A DNA stretch of 13,512 nt, taken from IMG/VR virus record IMGVR_UViG_2693429524_000013. One strand, written 5' to 3'. The position numbers and the translations under genes are program-made. Position 1 is the stretch's first letter. Every line of letters starts with the position of its first letter. This stretch comes from a virus. Its lineage: Duplodnaviria > Heunggongvirae > Uroviricota > Caudoviricetes. The notes beneath the pieces are model-generated. The model was given only the letters and a program-made list of their open reading frames with translations, made no database searches and was not told where the DNA came from. This document shows positions 2,066 to 13,274 of the stretch, in pieces.

Positions 2066-3112
2066 TTATTTAGCCTTGGCTTTTGCCAGAGCAGCGGCGG
2101 CGGAGTTACTAACACTCACTTTAACCACAACTTCAGGCATCATGTTCATGAAAGCATAAGAGGATTCAATGAAGATTTCTCGTTTACCTCTGGACTCTTC
2201 CATATACATGAAAGCTTCACGTGCAGCGCCGTTTGCAAGCTTCAGGTTGCGAGCGCAAGGGCCGAAAAATTGAGTATAAACGCCCACCATATCGCCTAAC
2301 GCATGTGGCTGGAATTGTGGGACCAGATAAGCAGTATTCTCTGGCAGACTATCCATTTGCACCACACGCAGGGCTAAGCCCGGAATGCGGAAGGTCGGGA
2401 AGCCCGGCAGAATATCCTCAGGGAACATCAGGCCTTTGTCAGTGATATTTTGATTGCCGAACAACAGCACCTTACGGAGCAGTTCATCAGTCTGAATTGC
2501 AGCAAAGAGTTCAGCACGGCAGAACAGGGTGAAACCACGCAGAGCACGAACGACACCACGCTGTTTAACCTTGCTCAGTGCAACCAGGTCCTGCAGCTGT
2601 TTAAGGATATCTTTAGCTAAATCCACTTCTGAAGTGGTTTGCTGTGCGCCCAGCAGTTCGCACACATTCAGTTCTTTACCCTTGGTGAGGATAATTTTGT
2701 TCTCAAAGAGAGCAAGCTGGCGTGCTTCTTCGTGGGTCTGGCGTAAGCCTTCGCCAAGCTGAATAACACGACGAGCGGTTACAGACTCTAAATTCTCTTC
2801 GGAATCTTTGCCCGGAACGCGGATACCCTGCCAGTCAGAAGGATAAATAGCACTTGATGCGGCAGTGAATGCCATATCACCCGTGCCCGTTTCACGCTCA
2901 TCTGCGGTAATGGTCGCCATCTGTTCACCGTAGCGAGGATACTGACCGAAAGCAGATTGTTTCACCTGGCGAACTTTGTCATATTCAAATTTAAAGGTAT
3001 TGCACAGAGCAGTAGTGTTGAAGATATCCATTGCTGAAATAATCTGGTTATCCAGCGGGATGTCTTTAATCAGACCACACAGATCGCGAACTTCGAATTC
3101 TTTCTTAGCCAT
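2066..3112 (-). CDS. phage major capsid protein, lambda gpE-like
   Basis: Track ORF 2066..3118 begins at TTG; ATG at 3112 has AGGAGG 6 nt upstream. Size (~348 aa) fits gpE-type capsid proteins. Segment RRVIQLGEGLRQTHEEARQLALFENKIILTKGK resembles lambda gpE region RRRIIMQNMRDEELAIAQVEEMQAVSAVLKGK (alignment recalled from memory, not computed). Preceded by a ~110-aa gene, as D precedes E in lambda. Confidence 0.65.
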   Translation of the reverse strand: MAKKEFEVRDLCGLIKDIPLDNQIISAMDIFNTTALCNTFKFEYDKVRQVKQSAFGQYPRYGEQMATITADERETGTGDMAFTAASSAIYPSDWQGIRVPGKDSEENLESVTARRVIQLGEGLRQTHEEARQLALFENKIILTKGKELNVCELLGAQQTTSEVDLAKDILKQLQDLVALSKVKQRGVVRALRGFTLFCRAELFAAIQTDELLRKVLLFGNQNITDKGLMFPEDILPGFPTFRIPGLALRVVQMDSLPENTAYLVPQFQPHALGDMVGVYTQFFGPCARNLKLANGAAREAFMYMEESRGKREIFIESSYAFMNMMPEVVVKVSVSNSAAAALAKAKAK

Positions 3113-3123
3113 CTTCAACCTCC

Positions 3124-3459: not shown

Positions 3460-3787
3460 TTGATCACCTGCGATTTAAATTAACTCCCCTCAAAGAGTTC
3501 CGGTATAACCTCTCAAACCGCGACAGGCTCGGGCCGAAAAGTTATGCCGGAAATCTAAAGGGAAATTGATACAAGGAAAGGGAGATAGCCCCGCACCGTC
3601 CAAGCGGGGGCTATTCCATATGGGGAAAACCAACAACAGTTGGCTGATAGTTCACAGTATGGTTACGGTTACTAGAGAGCACTATCACGAAAGGCACTCC
3701 CCCGAATCAGTTCAGGCTGCGGTCACATCAGCGGGGAAATACCTTTCGGGATAGCTACCCACACAGAAAACCCGCAAAAGAAAACTG

Positions 3788-3796
3788 TGTGGATAA
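3788..3796 (-). promoter_or_regulatory. perfect DnaA-box consensus TTATCCACA
   Basis: Plus strand reads TGTGGATAA, so the minus strand is TTATCCACA. Overlaps the 3' arm of an 8-bp inverted repeat CCACACAG (3759-3766) / CTGTGTGG (3785-3792). Single occurrence; within the leader of the head operon. Confidence 0.3.
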
Positions 3797-3943
3797 CTAG
3801 CCCAATAGGAGAATTAATCGACCACTCAACGATGATCAGGGTAGTGTTATTTATAAGGCGGCACCGCTACCTGGTCGCCGTTACTTTGGAGGAAAATACG
3901 GCAAATCAAGATCTTCTCACATTGATATTGACGCCATATGTAT

Positions 3944-3972
3944 ATTATATCAGTATTTACTCACATTGTCAA
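3944..3972 (-). promoter_or_regulatory. consensus sigma70 promoter reading leftward toward the head module
   Basis: On the minus strand: TTGACA (3972-3967), 17-bp spacer, TATAAT (3949-3944). Both hexamers are perfect consensus. Predicted TSS near 3937, giving a ~480-nt leader before the gene at 3459. Confidence 0.55.
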
Positions 3973-4195
3973 CACCCTGATTATATAAATTCTAATAATT
4001 AGCGTAGTAACGGTATTTTCAGACCTCTATCAATCCCATCAATACGTCACCCCACCCTTTAGACATATACATCTATCACTACTTTATAAAGCCTGATAGA
4101 TATCCGTTGATCCTGATCAAGGTTTTCCGGGGATTTACCCGGTTATAGTTCGAATCAAGGAAGGGGAGCATTGATAGCACCCAAACCGAACAAAC

Positions 4196-4213
4196 AAATC
4201 AACTTCTCGCAAA
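4196..4213 (+). promoter_or_regulatory. recurrent 18-nt leader motif AAATCAACTTCTCGCAAA, copy 1
   Basis: Exact 18-mer also at 4739-4756. In both cases it ends 11 nt before an ATG, with a purine-rich SD in between. Confidence 0.5.
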
Positions 4214-4224
4214 AGGTGATAGTT

Positions 4225-4347
4225 ATGGGTATCAAGAACAGTGCCAGCGCATGGCAAAAGGCCAGGTTTCATCACCCACACATTGTTAAGGCAATTGAGG
4301 TGGTTGGAGTGTTAGCCCTGATGTTAGCTCTGTGTGTGGAGGTGTGA
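4225..4347 (+). CDS. possible small hydrophobic peptide (40 aa)
   Basis: ATG at 4225 with AAGGTGA SD. Preceded 11 nt upstream by the recurrent motif AAATCAACTTCTCGCAAA. C-terminal half is hydrophobic (VVGVLALMLALCVEV). Below the 60-aa cutoff of the ORF track; uncertain. Confidence 0.3.
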   Translation: MGIKNSASAWQKARFHHPHIVKAIEVVGVLALMLALCVEV

Positions 4348-4449
4348 GATGGGCAAAGGAGGCAAAGCATTTTTTAATAGGTCTGGCTATCCTGGATGTT
4401 CTACTAATCATGATTGAGCGGAGTTTATGAACAGCATTGAGAGGAGTTT

Positions 4450-4710
4450 ATGACGGGGGCTAAAGATATCAGGAGACTGAGGGAAGAGCTGATAGCTGAA
4501 ATTAAAGCTAAGGCAAAGCAAATGGAGATAGCCGCACAAATGGATGTAGCGGAACAGATGTACAAGATGGTTGAAGAGGGAACACCACGACAGGTTATCG
4601 CTAAAACCTTCGGTGTGGGGATCGCCACCGTGCACAGAAGGCTGAAAGCCTATGCCGACTACCACAACATTGAGAGAGGGGAGGATGGGAGATTTAAGAA
4701 GAATAAATAG
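4450..4710 (+). CDS. small helix-turn-helix DNA-binding protein (86 aa)
   Basis: ORF 4450..4710 with GAGGAG SD. Segment TPRQVIAKTFGVGIATVHRRLK is a classic HTH pattern. N-terminal part reads as coiled-coil-like. Confidence 0.6.
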   Translation: MTGAKDIRRLREELIAEIKAKAKQMEIAAQMDVAEQMYKMVEEGTPRQVIAKTFGVGIATVHRRLKAYADYHNIERGEDGRFKKNK

Positions 4711-4738: not shown

Positions 4739-4756
4739 AAATCAACTTCTCGCAAA
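4739..4756 (+). promoter_or_regulatory. recurrent 18-nt leader motif, copy 2
   Basis: Identical to 4196-4213. Ends 11 nt before the ATG of the membrane-protein gene (4768). Confidence 0.5.
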
Positions 4757-4767
4757 GGGGTACCACT

Positions 4768-5289
4768 ATGTTATTCCAGAAAGACAAAGAATCAGTAAAT
4801 AAAAGGCTTTTTAAAGAACTGGTAAAAATGTTCTTTCAGTACACTGCAGCGTTTTTGATAGCCGGGCCTTGGTTAATGGCTATCTGTTTTTACCCTGCTA
4901 CCTTGTTTATTGGCAGTAGCAAGTTCGGCGATGGCCCGTTTCATGTGGATATTGGTTTTATAGATTCTCTCCTGATCCGTCCTATAAATGCTGTTCTCAA
5001 TGCTTTCTACTTCCCAACTAGTCTAGAGGGGTGGGCGGTAACCTGGGGTGTTTTAGGCTTAGCATATGTATATTGGTTGGTTGGCTTTTTGTGGGGTGCA
5101 ATCTGTGCTCTCCTCGATATTGATACAGGATCAAGCCGTAGGAGTAGTGGTAATAATAGCGGAGCGGGTGTATATGCACACGTAGGTACCAGAGGGGTAA
5201 GTATCACCGCAGGTACCCGATTCGCTGGCGGCTGGCTGAGTATAGGCAAACGCGGCGTTAGTTGGAGAAAAAGCAAAAAACTGTTCTGA
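4768..5289 (+). CDS. predicted membrane protein (173 aa)
   Basis: ORF 4768..5289. Recurrent motif ends 11 nt before the ATG, followed by AGGGG SD. At least two hydrophobic helices (FFQYTAAFLIAGPWLMAICFYPATLFIG and AVTWGVLGLAYVYWLVGFLWGAICALL) and a Gly/Ser/Arg-rich C-terminal tail. Followed by a strong intrinsic terminator. Confidence 0.6.
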   Translation: MLFQKDKESVNKRLFKELVKMFFQYTAAFLIAGPWLMAICFYPATLFIGSSKFGDGPFHVDIGFIDSLLIRPINAVLNAFYFPTSLEGWAVTWGVLGLAYVYWLVGFLWGAICALLDIDTGSSRRSSGNNSGAGVYAHVGTRGVSITAGTRFAGGWLSIGKRGVSWRKSKKLF

Positions 5290-5296
5290 CCTACCA

Positions 5297-5318
5297 GGGG
5301 GCCATCACGGCCCCTTTT
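5297..5318 (+). terminator. rho-independent terminator after the membrane-protein gene
   Basis: GC-rich 6-bp stem GGGGCC/GGCCCC with 5-nt loop, followed by TTTT (5315-5318). Lies 8 nt past the stop at 5289. Confidence 0.6.
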
Positions 5319-5404
5319 CTATTTCCAGTCGCTATAGCTCCTGAGTAATTCCACTCCCTGAGGTCGTGATCAATTCCACACCCTACCCCCTGATCAATTA
5401 ACCC

Positions 5405-5448
5405 CTATTTAATGGGTATTTAATGCCTATTTATTGATTTAATCCGTT
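5405..5448. repeat. AT-rich 11-bp tandem repeats (3-4 units)
   Basis: ctatttaatgg / gtatttaatgc / ctatttattga / tttaatccgtt in perfect tandem from 5405. Period is about one helical turn; candidate DNA-unwinding or bending element. Confidence 0.5.
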
Positions 5449-5514
5449 TTATGCCACAACCGCCCGGTTGACAGAGTAAGAGAGAGGGTGTAACCCTTTT
5501 TCGTAATACTAATG

Positions 5515-5530
5515 AAATCAATAAGTTAGC
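5515..5530 (+). repeat. 16-nt direct repeat AAATCAATAAGTTAGC, copy 1
   Basis: Exact 16-mer also at 13259-13274. Both copies are preceded 13-14 nt upstream by TAATA(C/T)T and lie shortly after a gene end. Confidence 0.5.
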
Positions 5531-6618
5531 TTAATAGGCCTTTTCTCTATTTTTGTCAAATTTAACATACCCTAAAAAACTGCAAAATCTGGCTGCAAGA
5601 TTATCTGCAGCTGGATTTCTTACACCTCATTTTGTGGTATCACCCTGACTAGTTTGTGCATAAATTGAACAGTTTTTAACATTTCCTCTTCACCTGGTAA
5701 CCACACAAAAAGCTAAAAACGAGGCACAGATAATCTTAGAGGCCTATTTTCTTGTTATCACTCTGGAAACGTCGTAGAAGTGATTTTGATGAAAGGCGAC
5801 CTACCCTATTACACCCCCATTTTTTGTTATCACAATTGCATCCTGTGTGGCTATATGGCTATGTGCTGAAAGCGGTCTCGGGTGTGGGTGTCAGAAATAT
5901 CCATTAGCGGTATTTGAGCTTATGGGTAACTCGTCTGAGGTGCCAGGCAGGCGCTCCCCTACCTCCCTTTTTTCTTCTAACAATTCTCAAATATCACACC
6001 ACTGCCCACCACGTTGCTATTATGTTAATTCTTAAGCTTTGCTGTATGTTGTGCACATTATTTATTCAGGTGGCTGTACGTAAATTCTGTGCCCACTGAT
6101 CATGATTTTTAAATCAGATTTTGTAGTGCGGTTTCTTAGTGCTGATAAGATCTATTATGTTAAATGCAATTTTCCCAACCCTTCAAATCAATGACTTACA
6201 TGTAAGCATGCACTAACACCACACACAGCACATTAGACGTATAGATGGCTATATCCCACATATTTGATTGTTTTGTAGTCATTCCCCTGATCATTTAACC
6301 AGTATAGTTTGTTATCTGCAGACCACAAAATCGGAATTTACATCTGATTAACATAATCTGTTAGCATGATCACCATTACCCACACAACAATAACCCCATG
6401 TAAGCCTCTTCAGGCAATTTATCGGCGTGTTGGTGTGAACAGTCTTTCATGTTCTTTATGTATCAGTTGTCCTGTGTGGTGATTTGGTGGACTGCCCCAG
6501 GGGCCATACTTATGATGCCCGGTCAACATAGCTGTTGATAAAATCAACGGGTGTTGACCTGCATATTTCCCACACATGAGAGGAAATCAGAGCAAAGAGA
6601 GAGGAGAGAGGTTTGTTA

Positions 6619-6668
6619 GTCACATATGGTGATTTGAGCTCATCTCAAACCTTCTACGAAGGCCTTTG
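6619..6668. repeat. tandem-hairpin element, copy A
   Basis: Hairpin 1: TTTGAG (6633-6638) / CTCAAA (6644-6649). CC linker. Hairpin 2: CCTTC (6650-6654) / GAAGG (6658-6662) with loop TAC. Flanked by TCACAT..GGTGATTTGAG and GGCCTTTG. Homologous to copy B. Confidence 0.5.
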
Positions 6669-6719
6669 CTAGTCAAAATCAAGTCACATTAGAGTCAAAT
6701 CAGATGCAATCAATCCCCC

Positions 6720-6778
6720 ACCTGTTGGGATTTCCCACATGTTCAACCATACACAGGAGCTAACCTGTTGGGATTTCC
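6720..6778. repeat. pair of 16-bp direct repeats ACCTGTTGGGATTTCC
   Basis: Identical 16-mers at 6720-6735 and 6763-6778 (43 bp apart). They share the ACCTGT core with the iterons immediately downstream. Confidence 0.6.
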
Positions 6779-6813
6779 TACAACCCCTTTCAGTCATACT
6801 CAGGCACCACACC

Positions 6814-7054
6814 CCGGTAAATATTTCCCTACTACCCCGGAGAATTTCTCCGCACTACCTGTAAAGAATTTTCACACCTGTGTGTTTATACAATCATACT
6901 CTCCTGTTTTGCAGTCATTGCACCCATGATACACAGCCCTAACCTGTAAAATATTTTTACTACCCCGCCAATAATACGGCCCATACCTGTAAAATATTTT
7001 TACTACTACCTGTCAAAATCTTTTACTACTACCTGTAAAAATATTTGACACTAA
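6814..7054. repeat. iteron array: six direct repeats of a ~21-23 bp unit
   Basis: Copies of CCTGTAAAATATTTTTACTAC-like units start at 6814, 6858, 6953, 6986, 7009 and 7032. The last three are exactly tandem at 23-bp spacing. Same orientation throughout; no ORF. Confidence 0.7.
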
Positions 7055-7101
7055 TAGATAAAGTAATAGACCACACAATAGATCCCCCTAACCCCCCAGG
7101 G

Positions 7102-7142
7102 GGGAATGGGGAGGGATCAGAGAGTGGGGAAGGTTTTCTAAG
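7102..7142. other. C6-A-G6 palindrome followed by G-tract-rich block
   Basis: CCCCCCAGGGGGG (7102-7114) followed by GGGGGGAATGGGGAGGGATCAGAGAGTGGGGAAGG. Four G-runs of 3 or more; possible G-quadruplex on the plus strand. Confidence 0.35.
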
Positions 7143-7245
7143 GGAAAAGCTTAACCCACAAATGAAAGCCTAAAGAGCATTAGCGACTCTTTAGGCAATC
7201 TGTGTGTGGGGTGACAATGTATTCCATACATGACACGTCACCCTG

Positions 7246-7316
7246 CTCACATGTGTGGTCCACTTCGTGGATTTGAGTTCACTCCGTAACTCAAACCCTC
7301 TACGAGGGCCTTGTGT
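7246..7316. repeat. tandem-hairpin element, copy B
   Basis: Hairpin 1: TTTGAGTT (7272-7279) / AACTCAAA (7288-7295). CC linker. Hairpin 2: CCCTC (7296-7300) / GAGGG (7304-7308) with loop TAC. Differs from copy A by a T-A to C-G double change that keeps the pair. Confidence 0.5.
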
Positions 7317-7410
7317 GGGGAGCGTAGTGCGATAGCACGTAGCTATATAATGTGGAGTCCGGATAAGAGACTTCTGTTTCCAATCCGGACCGTTTAAGCG
7401 AGTGGTTTCT

Positions 7411-7436
7411 CGCGCGCGTGCACGCACACATATATA
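7411..7436. other. 26-nt perfect alternating pyrimidine-purine tract (Z-DNA-prone)
   Basis: CGCGCGCGTGCACGCACACATATATA alternates pyrimidine/purine without a break for 26 nt. Read directly from the sequence. Confidence 0.5.
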
Positions 7437-7616
7437 AAGGATACACTCATAAATCGAAAATAAGGCCCCTAAATGGCCTTCTGGCTGCATTAACTAGTTT
7501 GAGTAGTGTAATTGCATTACCTGATGCTCAAATCGCGTTGTAGGGCCTCTTATGATGTTTGAGTTTAACACCCTCCAAAGTTTTAACAAAAAGTGCTCTC
7601 CCTCCATTGTGGGCCA

Positions 7617-7646
7617 TTGACAATCTTATTGCATAAATGCTATAAG
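7617..7646 (+). promoter_or_regulatory. possible second plus-strand promoter
   Basis: TTGACA (7617-7622), 18-bp spacer, TATAAG (7641-7646). Motif CCATTGACAAT recurs at 7745 within a perfect palindrome ATTGACAA-ttgg-TTGTCAAT (7746-7765). Confidence 0.3.
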
Positions 7647-7936
7647 TTATTCTGTTTTTGACACGGTAGGGGACATTAATAATGCTTACCCCTTTGCTGT
7701 GGACTTGTTTGTACCTATAGCTCGCCTAAATGATAATGATTCCCATTGACAATTGGTTGTCAATATGATAAGATTATAGATAGTGGGAGAAACAGATCCG
7801 GAGGTCAACGTGGAACTGAGCGACGCTATAGCGATCATCAACCTGGCTGTAATGTGGTGCGGTGTTGCCTACATAGCCGGAGTAACTGCAATCGACAACC
7901 TTGAAGAAAAAATGATAGATAAATACAAAAAGATTG

Positions 7937-7965
7937 TTGACAATCTCGCAAATAGCTGATAAAAT
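7937..7965 (+). promoter_or_regulatory. sigma70 promoter for the plus-strand operon
   Basis: TTGACA (7937-7942), 17-bp spacer, TAAAAT (7960-7965). The -35 sits in an imperfect palindrome GATTGTTGACAATC. About 120 nt upstream of the first gene (8088). Confidence 0.5.
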
Positions 7966-8317: not shown

Positions 8318-9202
8318 ATGGCAAACAATAAACTGGGGGCACATTTCACCCCCATTTTTAAACGTTTTATCAAGTATAATTTTGAAAATCCAATTGCAAA
8401 AACTACAACAGGCAAAGAGAGATTTAATTTAAATGCGACGGAATTGATAATTTACGGGGAAATGGTTGGCTTTCATTTAAACGGCAAAGAAATATTCATC
8501 TCGGAGCAGACCTTAGCAGATGATTGGGATTTTTCAAGACCAACGATTATTAAAGCTATTAAATCTCTAGTAAATGCTGGGATTATTTCTAAAGATAACC
8601 GGAAAGGCAAATCTAACATTTACAAACTGTTAATTACACCTGAGCAGTTTGATAAAATGTGCGATGAGCAGGGTATTAAAACCTTAGACAGTGTGGGAGA
8701 CAGCAAAGAGGCACCTGCTACACAGGCCCAAGATAATCAACAGGAAGCCCCAAAACAAGCCACACAGCAGCCTGAAAAGCCCGAGGCAATGCAATCCCCT
8801 TCCCAACCTAAAAAAGAACACAGAGAACGCCGTAGAGACGCTGGCAAACGTGAAATAGATGAGCACGGTTATCCGATTCTGACAAGCGATGAAATGAATG
8901 CCAGATATAAAGTAATTCAGGCCGCATTTAAAGATCAGAAGAGAATTAAATTATCTGAATTGCGTGATACATTTTACGGGCCGGAGGTGATGGATAAAAT
9001 TAAAGGCACTATTCCTGATAAAATCTGGAAAGAGGAAGATTACTGGCACCTGACAGAGCAGGCCCTTAAGGTAGCTCAACACGTGGTTAAAAGAGGCAAA
9101 TCAATTATTATTGATTCTATTAGTCATGGCTATGATGCACCGAAAGAAAGGTTGTGGAACAACTGCAAGCTTGTAAAAGGCGAATTGACAATTACAAAAT
9201 AA
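8318..9202 (+). CDS. winged-helix DNA-binding protein (294 aa), possibly replication-initiator/organiser-like
   Basis: ORF 8318..9202 with GAGGGA SD. N-terminal pattern (ELIIYGEMVGF...ISEQTLADDWDFSRPTIIKAIKSLVNAGIIS) resembles wHTH domains of phage O-type/DnaD-like replication proteins. Q/P/K-rich low-complexity linker, then a C-terminal domain. Family assignment is inference. Confidence 0.55.
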   Translation: MANNKLGAHFTPIFKRFIKYNFENPIAKTTTGKERFNLNATELIIYGEMVGFHLNGKEIFISEQTLADDWDFSRPTIIKAIKSLVNAGIISKDNRKGKSNIYKLLITPEQFDKMCDEQGIKTLDSVGDSKEAPATQAQDNQQEAPKQATQQPEKPEAMQSPSQPKKEHRERRRDAGKREIDEHGYPILTSDEMNARYKVIQAAFKDQKRIKLSELRDTFYGPEVMDKIKGTIPDKIWKEEDYWHLTEQALKVAQHVVKRGKSIIIDSISHGYDAPKERLWNNCKLVKGELTITK

Positions 9203-11144: not shown

Positions 11145-13247
11145 ATGGCAATGAAGGAAGTCGCCAGACTAACAAACGTTATTTACTGGGATTCTGATAA
11201 ATCCTCCTGGCGAAAAGAAGTTAAACGGCTTGAGGATTATAAAAAATCCTGGAAGAAAGCCACCGACGATATAGCTAAAGCTGATTTTAAATCTAATCAG
11301 GCTGTGCTCAGAACACAAAGAACACGCGCTAAGGTGGAAGAGCAGATTGCCAGAGCACAGAAGAAACAACGTGCTCAGGCTGTCAGCCGTCTGACCGGGG
11401 GCAATAATCCGGAGCTCTCCTCTATGCGCAAGTTCTATCAGCAGCAAGCCAGAGAAGCCGCCAGACAACAAAAACTGTTAGATCGTAGTGTTGGAGATGT
11501 TCAGCACAGAAAAGCACGTGTAGGGGCCAACAGTGCACGAATCAGCAGCATGTTTGATGGATCCCTGGTTGCTCAGTTCCAATCCAGAATCCAGAGAGTT
11601 AATGCTGATTATGCTAAAGGGGCTATTAACCTGCAGACCTATAATCAGAAAATGGCTCGGCTCAGAGCTGAAATGAAGATGGCAACAGTAGAGGCCGGAA
11701 AATTTCAGAGCAGACTGGATAAACTGGCATCAGGTGCCAGCAAGGTGCATGACAACCTGGGCAAAATCAACTCCACACTAGGCAAGATAGCCATTGGCCT
11801 TACTGCCGCTGGCTGGGGTGTTCAGCGTGCTGTTAGTGGTGCTATGGGTAGCCTTGCAGATCGCAACAGTGCCTACTTCGGTTTGATGGCACAGAACAAG
11901 GATGATAAAGCCAAGACTGACCAGCAGATGGCCTACGTCAAAAGAATCTCTTATGACTATGGGATGGATCAGCGTGAGACCGAAGGCGGCTTTATGCGCT
12001 TTGCTGCAGCCACACCAAGCATAAAAGAGAAAGATAAGCAGGATCTCTTTGAGGCTATGGCGATTAAAGGCCGATCAGTGGGTGCTACTGCGGACCAACA
12101 GAACAGGGCTATCGTTGCACTAGGACAGATATATAGCAAGGGCGGTCGAGTGTATGCGGAAGAGCTTAAGGGCCAGCTGTCAGAAGCCCTGGCAGGTTCT
12201 CAGGTAGATTTCACTAAGGCCGCTATCGATGCCGGAATCATCAAGAAAGAGGAAGAATTTAATAAAGCCCTTGAAGATGGCAAGATCACCATGGACAAGC
12301 TTCTTCCTTCCCTAGTGAAAATCTGGGGTGCTGCAAAAGAAACTAAAGCTTTTGCTGAATCCATGAAACAGCCAGAAGTAGCAATGCAGCGCATGAAAAA
12401 CAGCTTTAACGAGCTGGCGATTCAGTTTATGGGTGTTGTGGATCCTGCCGATGGCGTTGTTAGCTTATCTGAATCTCTGATCTCCATCTTCGAAGACCTC
12501 ACCACTGATATGGACGGCAGCGGGAGCGCGGCAAAACAGTTTGGTGAAGCAGTCGGTGCTGCCATGCGGGAGATCATGTATTGGGTAGGCTTCGCTAAGG
12601 GCTATATCGAGGTCAAGGCTAAAGAGTTCGGCATGACCGGATCAGAGGTTGGCGAGCTTATCGGGAAACTAGTAGTCGGCTTAGCAGGTCTGAAAGTTAT
12701 TACCACACTGCTTTCCCCTCTAACCGGATTTGTTTCACTTGTCACTCAGCTGATAGCCTTGTTAGGCAAAATCCCTGGTATGAGCAAGCTTATGGCATCT
12801 GCCTCAGGTGGAACGGCAACAGGAGCAGCGGTCATCAGTGCAGGATCTAACGCTGAAAGAAGTTTCATTGATGGCAAGACGCAGGAAATGAGTAAGGAGA
12901 ACTCAAAACAGGGCGCTTTGTTTGAGCTGGGGAGATTTGTCAGCAATGCTGGCGCACTGTTCACACCTGGCGGTGATACTGGTCCTTTGTTCGATCAGGT
13001 CAAAGGCTGGTTTAATAAAGGGCCAACATTGACAGTAGACACTGGCATCAGACCAACACCAACAGGCGGCATAGCTATCCAGAATGGTGGATATCAACCA
13101 GTCCAAGTAAATGTAGCCCCACAAGGTGAGATTTCCGGCAAATGGGAGATAACCATCGATGAGGGGGGAATTGCCAGGGTGATCCAGAAGGAAGTCAGCG
13201 ATCAGTTGGATTGGAAAGCCACACAGGAATCTAACCAGCTTTTCTAA
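11145..13247 (+). CDS. phage tail tape measure protein (700 aa)
   Basis: ORF 11145..13247 with GAGGTG SD 6 nt upstream. N-terminal ~200 aa charged and coiled-coil-like. Central segment (ATADQQNRAIVALGQIYSKGGRVYAEELKGQLSEALAG) matches the tape-measure domain signature as I recall it. C-terminal part has hydrophobic Gly/Ala-rich segments typical of these proteins. Confidence 0.75.
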   Translation: MAMKEVARLTNVIYWDSDKSSWRKEVKRLEDYKKSWKKATDDIAKADFKSNQAVLRTQRTRAKVEEQIARAQKKQRAQAVSRLTGGNNPELSSMRKFYQQQAREAARQQKLLDRSVGDVQHRKARVGANSARISSMFDGSLVAQFQSRIQRVNADYAKGAINLQTYNQKMARLRAEMKMATVEAGKFQSRLDKLASGASKVHDNLGKINSTLGKIAIGLTAAGWGVQRAVSGAMGSLADRNSAYFGLMAQNKDDKAKTDQQMAYVKRISYDYGMDQRETEGGFMRFAAATPSIKEKDKQDLFEAMAIKGRSVGATADQQNRAIVALGQIYSKGGRVYAEELKGQLSEALAGSQVDFTKAAIDAGIIKKEEEFNKALEDGKITMDKLLPSLVKIWGAAKETKAFAESMKQPEVAMQRMKNSFNELAIQFMGVVDPADGVVSLSESLISIFEDLTTDMDGSGSAAKQFGEAVGAAMREIMYWVGFAKGYIEVKAKEFGMTGSEVGELIGKLVVGLAGLKVITTLLSPLTGFVSLVTQLIALLGKIPGMSKLMASASGGTATGAAVISAGSNAERSFIDGKTQEMSKENSKQGALFELGRFVSNAGALFTPGGDTGPLFDQVKGWFNKGPTLTVDTGIRPTPTGGIAIQNGGYQPVQVNVAPQGEISGKWEITIDEGGIARVIQKEVSDQLDWKATQESNQLF

Positions 13248-13258
13248 TATTGTGATCT

Positions 13259-13274
13259 AAATCAATAAGTTAGC
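13259..13274 (+). repeat. 16-nt direct repeat AAATCAATAAGTTAGC, copy 2
   Basis: Identical to 5515-5530. Begins 12 nt after the tape-measure stop codon. Confidence 0.5.

Follow-up and report, generated by a model that had tools for sequence, protein, structure and literature searches.

A helically phased TATTTA array as a candidate protein-binding site in the non-coding DNA of an Escherichia coli plasmid family

The 13,512-bp stretch of DNA analysed here (the window) carries a short array of 11-bp direct repeats with the core TATTTA that, by comparison with its relatives, is the most tightly conserved non-coding DNA of the plasmid family. The array is phased with the DNA helix, extremely conserved, variable in copy number, distant from the iterons of the plasmid and restricted to the clade with a short helix-turn-helix (HTH) protein, and we infer that it is probably a binding array for some sequence-specific protein and not a DNA-unwinding element. 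As to the binder and the role, the reading that we prefer, tentatively and with rather less than even confidence, is cooperative binding by the 86-amino-acid (aa) HTH protein of the plasmid itself, with a centromere-like or operator function in stability or regulation.

The exact cores start at 5406, 5417 and 5428, a spacing of exactly 11 bp, and belong to the units TATTTAATGGG, TATTTAATGCC and TATTTATTGAT (5406-5438), each with a G+C spacer, or clamp, of 4-5 bp. A degenerate unit, CAATTAACCCC (usual form TATTTAACCCC), lies upstream at 5394-5404, and a degenerate tail that is off the 11-bp register follows at 5436-5451, with GATTTA at 5436 and GTTTTA at 5446. TRF reported a repeat at 5404-5433 with a period of 11, 2.7 copies and a score of 46. 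The count of three to four tandem 11-mers in the first-pass annotation was therefore accurate, since the three exact units have degenerate sequence on either side. Over 40 bp the array is 78% A+T, and it does not itself contain GATC. Among 500 simulated sequences of 13.5 kb (first-order Markov), one contained any 6-mer in three copies spaced evenly with a period of 9-12 bp; with the non-coding composition the result was 2 of 500. The helical-turn periodicity that had been pointed out is thus a real property of a non-random array with one box per turn of DNA and, as the relatives described below indicate, it is strongly selected.

The window corresponds to a single complete unit of a circular plasmid from E. 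coli. Over their full length, and across the window junction, nine public plasmids of 13.2 to 13.7 kb align with it at 92-94% identity; gene calls are the sole annotation of these and of one longer record, and a literature search found no description of the family. In the longer record, NZ_CP043822.1 (L009; 39,610 bp), three copies of the 13.5-kb unit, one of them rearranged, are joined head to tail, and this trimer could be a true multimer or an assembly artefact. On the minus strand, the plasmid has genes for a neck/tail-completion protein (236-694), a Dit-like "tail tube initiator" (691-1611) and a major capsid protein (2066-3118), and it further encodes a tape-measure protein (11145-13247), an O-like/HTH_36 replication initiator (Rep; 8318-9202) and the 86-aa HTH_7-type protein (4450-4710, plus strand). 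No terminase or portal gene was found on the 13.5-kb plasmid. The capsid proteins of the family are numerous, with more than 400 member sequences in one cluster alone. About 30% of the plasmid is free of ORFs (3460-4450, 5290-7780 and 13250-236), and Rfam, searched with the entire window (E <= 1), returned nothing credible. Between the HTH gene and the array is a hypervariable accessory ORF (4768-5289). Its position (4750-5290) is a hotspot, occupied across relatives by products of 162, 165, 173, 179, 195, 225, 236 and 331 aa; several of the alleles have no alignable DNA, and the 173-aa product of the window had no family match.

For the conservation of the array we compared 30 elements with a short HTH protein, namely, the window, the nine plasmid records and 20 contigs, the last from assemblies of isolates and metagenomes. 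Core (TATTTA) and register (11 bp) were invariant in all 30, in 15 distinct architectures with three to six copies, of which five contiguous units were the commonest, and in some relatives the array was split into two sets (2+4). Spacers among the 30 were TCCCC, ACCCC, CCCCC, TCCCT, AGGGG, ATGGG, ATGCC and ATACC, and position-specific spacers were kept across subfamilies. The array is conserved better than any DNA-binding protein that the plasmid encodes, as would be expected also with a host or helper-phage factor as the binder. The most divergent short-HTH relative is L131, the proteins of which are 39-93% identical to those of the window. Its non-coding DNA beside the array is 62-66% identical and its accessory gene has 74% identity to the nearest allele, while the array reads, letter for letter, TATTTATCCCC TATTTAACCCC TATTTAATGGG TATTTAATGCC TATTTA (five units). 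Since both flanks have diverged (62-74% identity) while the five units are identical, recent recombination was rejected as the cause, and what the alignment shows is purifying selection on the DNA sequence. A hidden protein gene was likewise rejected: there was no conserved ORF or frame bias in 5290-7800, and tblastx against L131 returned fragments of 10-34 aa in all frames and on both strands, so that the conservation is at the DNA level.

The array is also confined to this clade. Among 5,426 complete E. coli genomes no other replicon had it, an observation that speaks against a general host regulon. A scan of IMG/VR for TATTTA-N5 repeated three times returned A+T-rich giant-virus and phage repeats only; a stricter pattern found eight perfect tandem arrays of 11 bp in low-G+C phages, all unrelated and to be seen as analogues. 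The non-coding region had no phage match by megablast or blastn. A longer homologue of the HTH protein (224-265 aa) led to a sister clade (L161, L162 and L163; 13.9-14.6 kb), in which gene order and long non-coding region are the same as in the short-HTH clade and no TATTTA array follows the terminator. Three ATTTA-type boxes lie about 400 bp further on in these elements.

The surroundings of the array are partly variable and partly kept. Upstream is the intrinsic terminator of the HTH/accessory operon (GGGGCCATCACGGCCCC followed by a T run; 5296-5320, plus strand), and in most relatives the array starts at this T run; the commonest form, with five units, begins inside it. In the window, the first, terminator-side unit is missing, and an indel-variable segment of 84 bp (5317-5400) stands in place of the first two units. 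This segment has two 24-nt direct repeats (5336-5359 and 5361-5384) 25 bp apart and holds both array-side TGATCA sites (5367 and 5391); it is missing or altered in most relatives, and relatives have a different insertion of about 50 bp or none. Downstream by about 70 bp is a perfect IHF consensus, AATCAATAAGTTA (5516-5528, plus strand), which is kept, with changes, in divergent clades. A 16-mer that contains the consensus, AAATCAATAAGTTAGC, occurs twice, at 5515-5530 and at 13259-13274 just past the tape-measure gene, and a third IHF consensus is found at 6186. Phased A/T tracts at 5535-5580 have the highest predicted curvature in the plasmid (wedge model, peak at 5551). The suggestion of phased bending is therefore partly right, with the array itself at the 97th percentile of predicted curvature and the plasmid maximum 100 bp downstream, but the role in an origin that was attached to it is not supported. 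A TTGACA hexamer at 5468-5473 (plus strand), kept in closer relatives, was tried as a sigma-70 promoter and rejected; it is probably not one, because the -10 sequence is not conserved (TAACCC, TCACCC, TGGAGC and TAAAGC).

On the preferred reading, the three to six TATTTA boxes, placed one per turn with short G+C spacers, would let copies of a small protein align cooperatively on one face of the helix, and the complex, together with the IHF site and the curved DNA, would wrap or bend the left edge of a 2.5-kb control region. The likeliest binder would be the plasmid's own 86-aa coiled-coil/HTH protein, the gene for which lies 0.7 kb upstream in the operon whose terminator adjoins the array, and the likeliest role would be that of a "handle" of the centromere or operator kind that serves the stability or regulation of the plasmid, comparable to StbA-stbS of R388 and ParR-parC of R1. 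The one-turn period of the repeats, the arrangement as five contiguous units or as 2+4, and the adjoining perfect IHF consensus and curvature maximum are evidence for such a docking array. Exact boxes at every turn, in variable number and at times in two sets, typify arrays to which proteins bind cooperatively. Structure prediction for the 86-aa protein gave a long helix (residues 3-42) and an HTH (residues 47-72), and the recognition helix, ATV(H/Q)RR(L/I), is conserved in all clades in a protein that is 57-59% identical overall. A PDB fold search with the model returned generic HTH matches only, relatives of the protein were not found in GTDB species representatives or IMG/VR, and tblastn of the HTH and capsid proteins against phages gave no match. 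Further observations count against this binder. The homologue in the sister clade, extended to 224-265 aa by a C-terminal domain, has the same recognition helix, yet there is no array there; either the HTH does not need the array or its sites lie elsewhere in that clade, or the array has another binder. The array is also located downstream of the HTH operon and not over its promoter.

Known partition sites show how far the comparison carries. The stbS site of R388 consists of 9-bp direct repeats with 2-bp spacers, hence a cycle of 11 bp, in two sets, with arrays of two to five, and is bound cooperatively by the small HTH protein StbA without the need for a plasmid NTPase. The plasmid studied here resembles this system in its 11-bp direct repeats, in the split sets of some relatives and in having a small HTH protein as the candidate binder, and also in the lack of an NTPase, as no ParA, ParM or TubZ motor was found with Pfam, PHROGs or NCBIfam. 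It differs in that the stbS core, TTGCATCAT, is unrelated to the array core, that stbS overlaps the stbA promoter whereas the array is downstream of the operon terminator, and that StbA has an N-terminal HTH and no detected sequence similarity to the 86-aa protein. The repeats of R1 parC are 11 bp long. They form two sets of five iterons on which a continuous complex is built along one DNA face (PMC2241845). The array is similar in having iteron-like boxes, one per turn and in two sets in some relatives, but ParR is a ribbon-helix-helix protein that acts with the actin-like motor ParM, no such gene appeared in the scans of the plasmid, and R1 parC lies over the operon promoter whereas the array follows the HTH operon. 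Taken by itself the array is one more phased direct-repeat binding site, and the element that carries it is more unusual.

The main rival to the docking-array reading is that the array is bound by a protein or packaging-specificity factor of an rV5-like phage and is the sensing, activation or packaging-initiation site of a satellite, which we think unlikely. The rV5-like phages are the Vequintavirinae, with genomes of about 136 kb. The plasmid has homologues in these virulent phages of the tail tube initiator (51%), neck (43-45%), tape-measure (26%) and capsid (24%) proteins, and non-coding blocks are common to plasmid and phage, so that the plasmid looks like a satellite of rV5-like phages, with a helper relationship that we infer and that is thus itself a weak point of this rival. 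A non-coding profile of the family (nhmmer) matched phage MaxTheCat at 131686-131936 (L141 31686-31936) with an E value of 3.5e-21, in the part that corresponds to about 7300-7560 of the window. Within this homology is a stem both arms of which differ, with the loop, GAAAGCTTGCCAGCGCCGnAAGGAG, preserved, and the window has a different variant there; a shared small RNA is possible. The second block, at 5940-5996 of the window and 91576-91630 of MaxTheCat, consists of TGCCAGGC and TTCTTnTAACAATTCTCAAATATC with 23/24 core bases identical, lies inside a 2.5-kb non-coding gap of the phage itself (90051-92584) and is one of the few blocks that are kept in the divergent L131. The most over-represented 7-mer of the plasmid, CCACACA/TGTGTGG (20 copies against 2.4 expected, for example, at 3759, 4276, 5701, 6380, 6570, 7203, 7252 and 7312), is mostly conserved and dense in the non-coding DNA, and in the phage it clusters in exactly the two regions that are homologous to the non-coding DNA of the plasmid.

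Satellites are known to mimic short pieces of the helper pac site, and this, together with an array that is conserved more than the plasmid's own DNA-binding proteins, would suit a phage-derived binder. A precedent is PLE, a satellite of the virulent phage ICP1 that has a short, highly conserved non-coding block in common with its helper, and the plasmid is likewise satellite-like with a block common to a virulent phage. The block in common is, however, the one at 5940-5996, which may imitate a cis site of the phage (pac or ori), and not the array, which has no counterpart in the examined phage: TATTTA-N5-TATTTA is absent from the whole rV5-like genome that was searched (MaxTheCat). For packaging mimicry of the PLE type, the 5940-5996 block, with its 23/24 bases in the phage gap, would therefore be the better candidate. 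The sister clade also has the same structural genes and no array, so that the array is not a universal pac or sensing site.

In relatives, the terminator with the first array unit agrees at 26-27 of 29 bases with a Vequintavirus terminator that is bidirectional, a point in favour of the phage interface, and the matches to this query in the phage collection were mostly Vequintavirus phages. This resemblance suggests that the array grew by duplication of the 11-mer at a phage-derived terminator tail. The widest form of the satellite idea is an undescribed family of plasmid-borne satellites of virulent rV5-like (Vequintavirus) myoviruses with their own capsid, tape-measure protein and tail tube initiator and a partly phage-derived 2.5-kb "control board," in which the array would be the place of assembly of a phage- or satellite-encoded factor that switches the element from maintenance to amplification or packaging; as a whole, this remains speculative and, in our judgement, doubtful.

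The start of the array in the T run of the terminator in most relatives could also mean that it serves transcription, either as an insulator or termination back-up, in which slippage of 11-mers has made a U-rich terminator tail against read-through, or as a nucleation site for silencing of the H-NS type. The single unit at the related phage terminator and the variation in copy number, which is consistent with slippage, agree with this explanation. It is nevertheless improbable, since a terminator has no need of an exact 6-mer or of a register of 11 bp, the spacers are conserved by position from one subfamily to another, and in the window the array is still conserved with 84 bp between it and the terminator.

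That the array is a DNA-unwinding or phased-bend element of a replication origin, as the first-pass annotation had proposed, we consider very improbable. The region is curved, and the array, with its 78% A+T, ranks within the six least stable windows of 40 bp (z = 2.6); its last unit, CTATTTATT, resembles part of the 13-mer L of oriC, and the unwinding 13-mers of oriC and iteron plasmids are also A+T-rich short tandem repeats. The array differs from those elements in lying away from the initiator sites, in not being the stability minimum, in its G+C clamp at every turn and in that the exact hexamer and its register are selected and not the A+T content. Over 100 bp its stability is unremarkable (z = 1.2), and the least stable duplex in the nearest-neighbour profile, in both 40- and 100-bp windows, is at 6984-7080, with the array in about sixth place at 40 bp. 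The iterons that had been noted are real and are 1.27 kb from the array, at 6716-7049, as a mosaic of 20-23-bp iterons that is followed by three copies of AATAGA with a 12-bp period (7053-7083; AT-rich), the whole origin spanning 6716-7085. The iterons are of three types that track very divergent Rep alleles (27-99% identity), which match them, and the minimum of stability lies with them. L007 and L131 have 96%-identical Rep proteins and the same iteron type, and by this comparison Rep modules have been exchanged between subfamilies. With the sister clade lacking the array as well, the view that it is the melting region of the replication origin is not supported.

The other origin-like signatures fared unevenly. 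The DnaA box exists, as a single perfect copy (TGTGGATAA, 3788-3796) that overlaps a TGTGTGG motif, but it lies in the other non-coding region (3460-4450), far from the iterons; within 5290-7800, DnaA boxes have one mismatch (5655, 6376 and 6533). Both copies of CCCCTGATCA(A/T)TTAACC are present, at 5387-5408 and 6284-6305, and are 86% identical over 22 nt, the second being kept in closer relatives and absent in L131. TGATCA sites are indeed several, nine against about 3.3 expected, with 8/9 in ORF-free DNA, while GATC overall is at expectation (52 against 53). P1 pac has TGATCA hexamers near an IHF site, and the array side is similar in this; P1 has two clusters of three or four TGATCA/G hexamers that flank the cleavage region, whereas here there are two hexamers on the array side. 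A P1-type Dam-controlled site at the array is not supported, because the array-side pair is in the indel-variable 84-bp segment absent from most relatives and the other sites are scattered and are lost in relatives: those at 6288 and 6367 are kept in closer relatives and lost in L131, and that at 6097 is lost in L008, L005 and L131. The proposal of a role for Dam methylation is accordingly weak.

A host response regulator of the OmpR/PhoB class is a highly improbable binder. These regulators recognise direct repeats at 11-bp spacing, the geometry of the array, and the core is one base from the half-site of the PhoP box, TGTTTA-N5-TGTTTA. The half-site consensus is (T/G)GTTTA, and its conserved G is A in every unit of the array; furthermore, there is no similar array elsewhere in E. 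coli genomes, and the array is not at the -35 position of any recognisable promoter. Accessory sequences for Xer recombination were also considered, but a distance of about 700 bp between array and Xer core led to their rejection.

The Xer site itself is a dif/cer-like sequence at 6138-6165, AGTGCTGATAA-GATCTA-TTATGTTAAAT, that matches dif at 11/11 positions in the XerD arm and at 22/28 in the whole site; it is kept within the family and probably serves to resolve multimers. Further along the non-coding region, at 6620-6670 and 7200-7320, are cassettes of three consecutive hairpins flanked by TGTGTGG(G), which vary in number and sequence among relatives with the hairpins preserved. MaxTheCat has a related element, a double hairpin, at about 90905-90950, and L133 has it twice. 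Upstream of the rep operon, ATTGACAAT is found at strong promoter-like sites (7615-7625, 7744-7765 and 7935-7945), once as the inverted pair ATTGACAATTGGTTGTCAAT, and these repeats are probably an operator. The -10 regions of these sites (TGaTAAAATA) resemble the TGGTAAAATA motif upstream of the late genes in the rV5-like phage.

In conclusion, the array matters by its position, as the most tightly conserved non-coding DNA of E. coli plasmids that form a widespread family. The rV5-like phages are candidates for therapy and biocontrol, which would make a resident plasmid that is parasitic on them practically relevant. Should the plasmids prove to be satellites of virulent phages, the array, the Xer site, the phage-like blocks and the iteron origin would be handles with which to dissect their maintenance, sensing and packaging.
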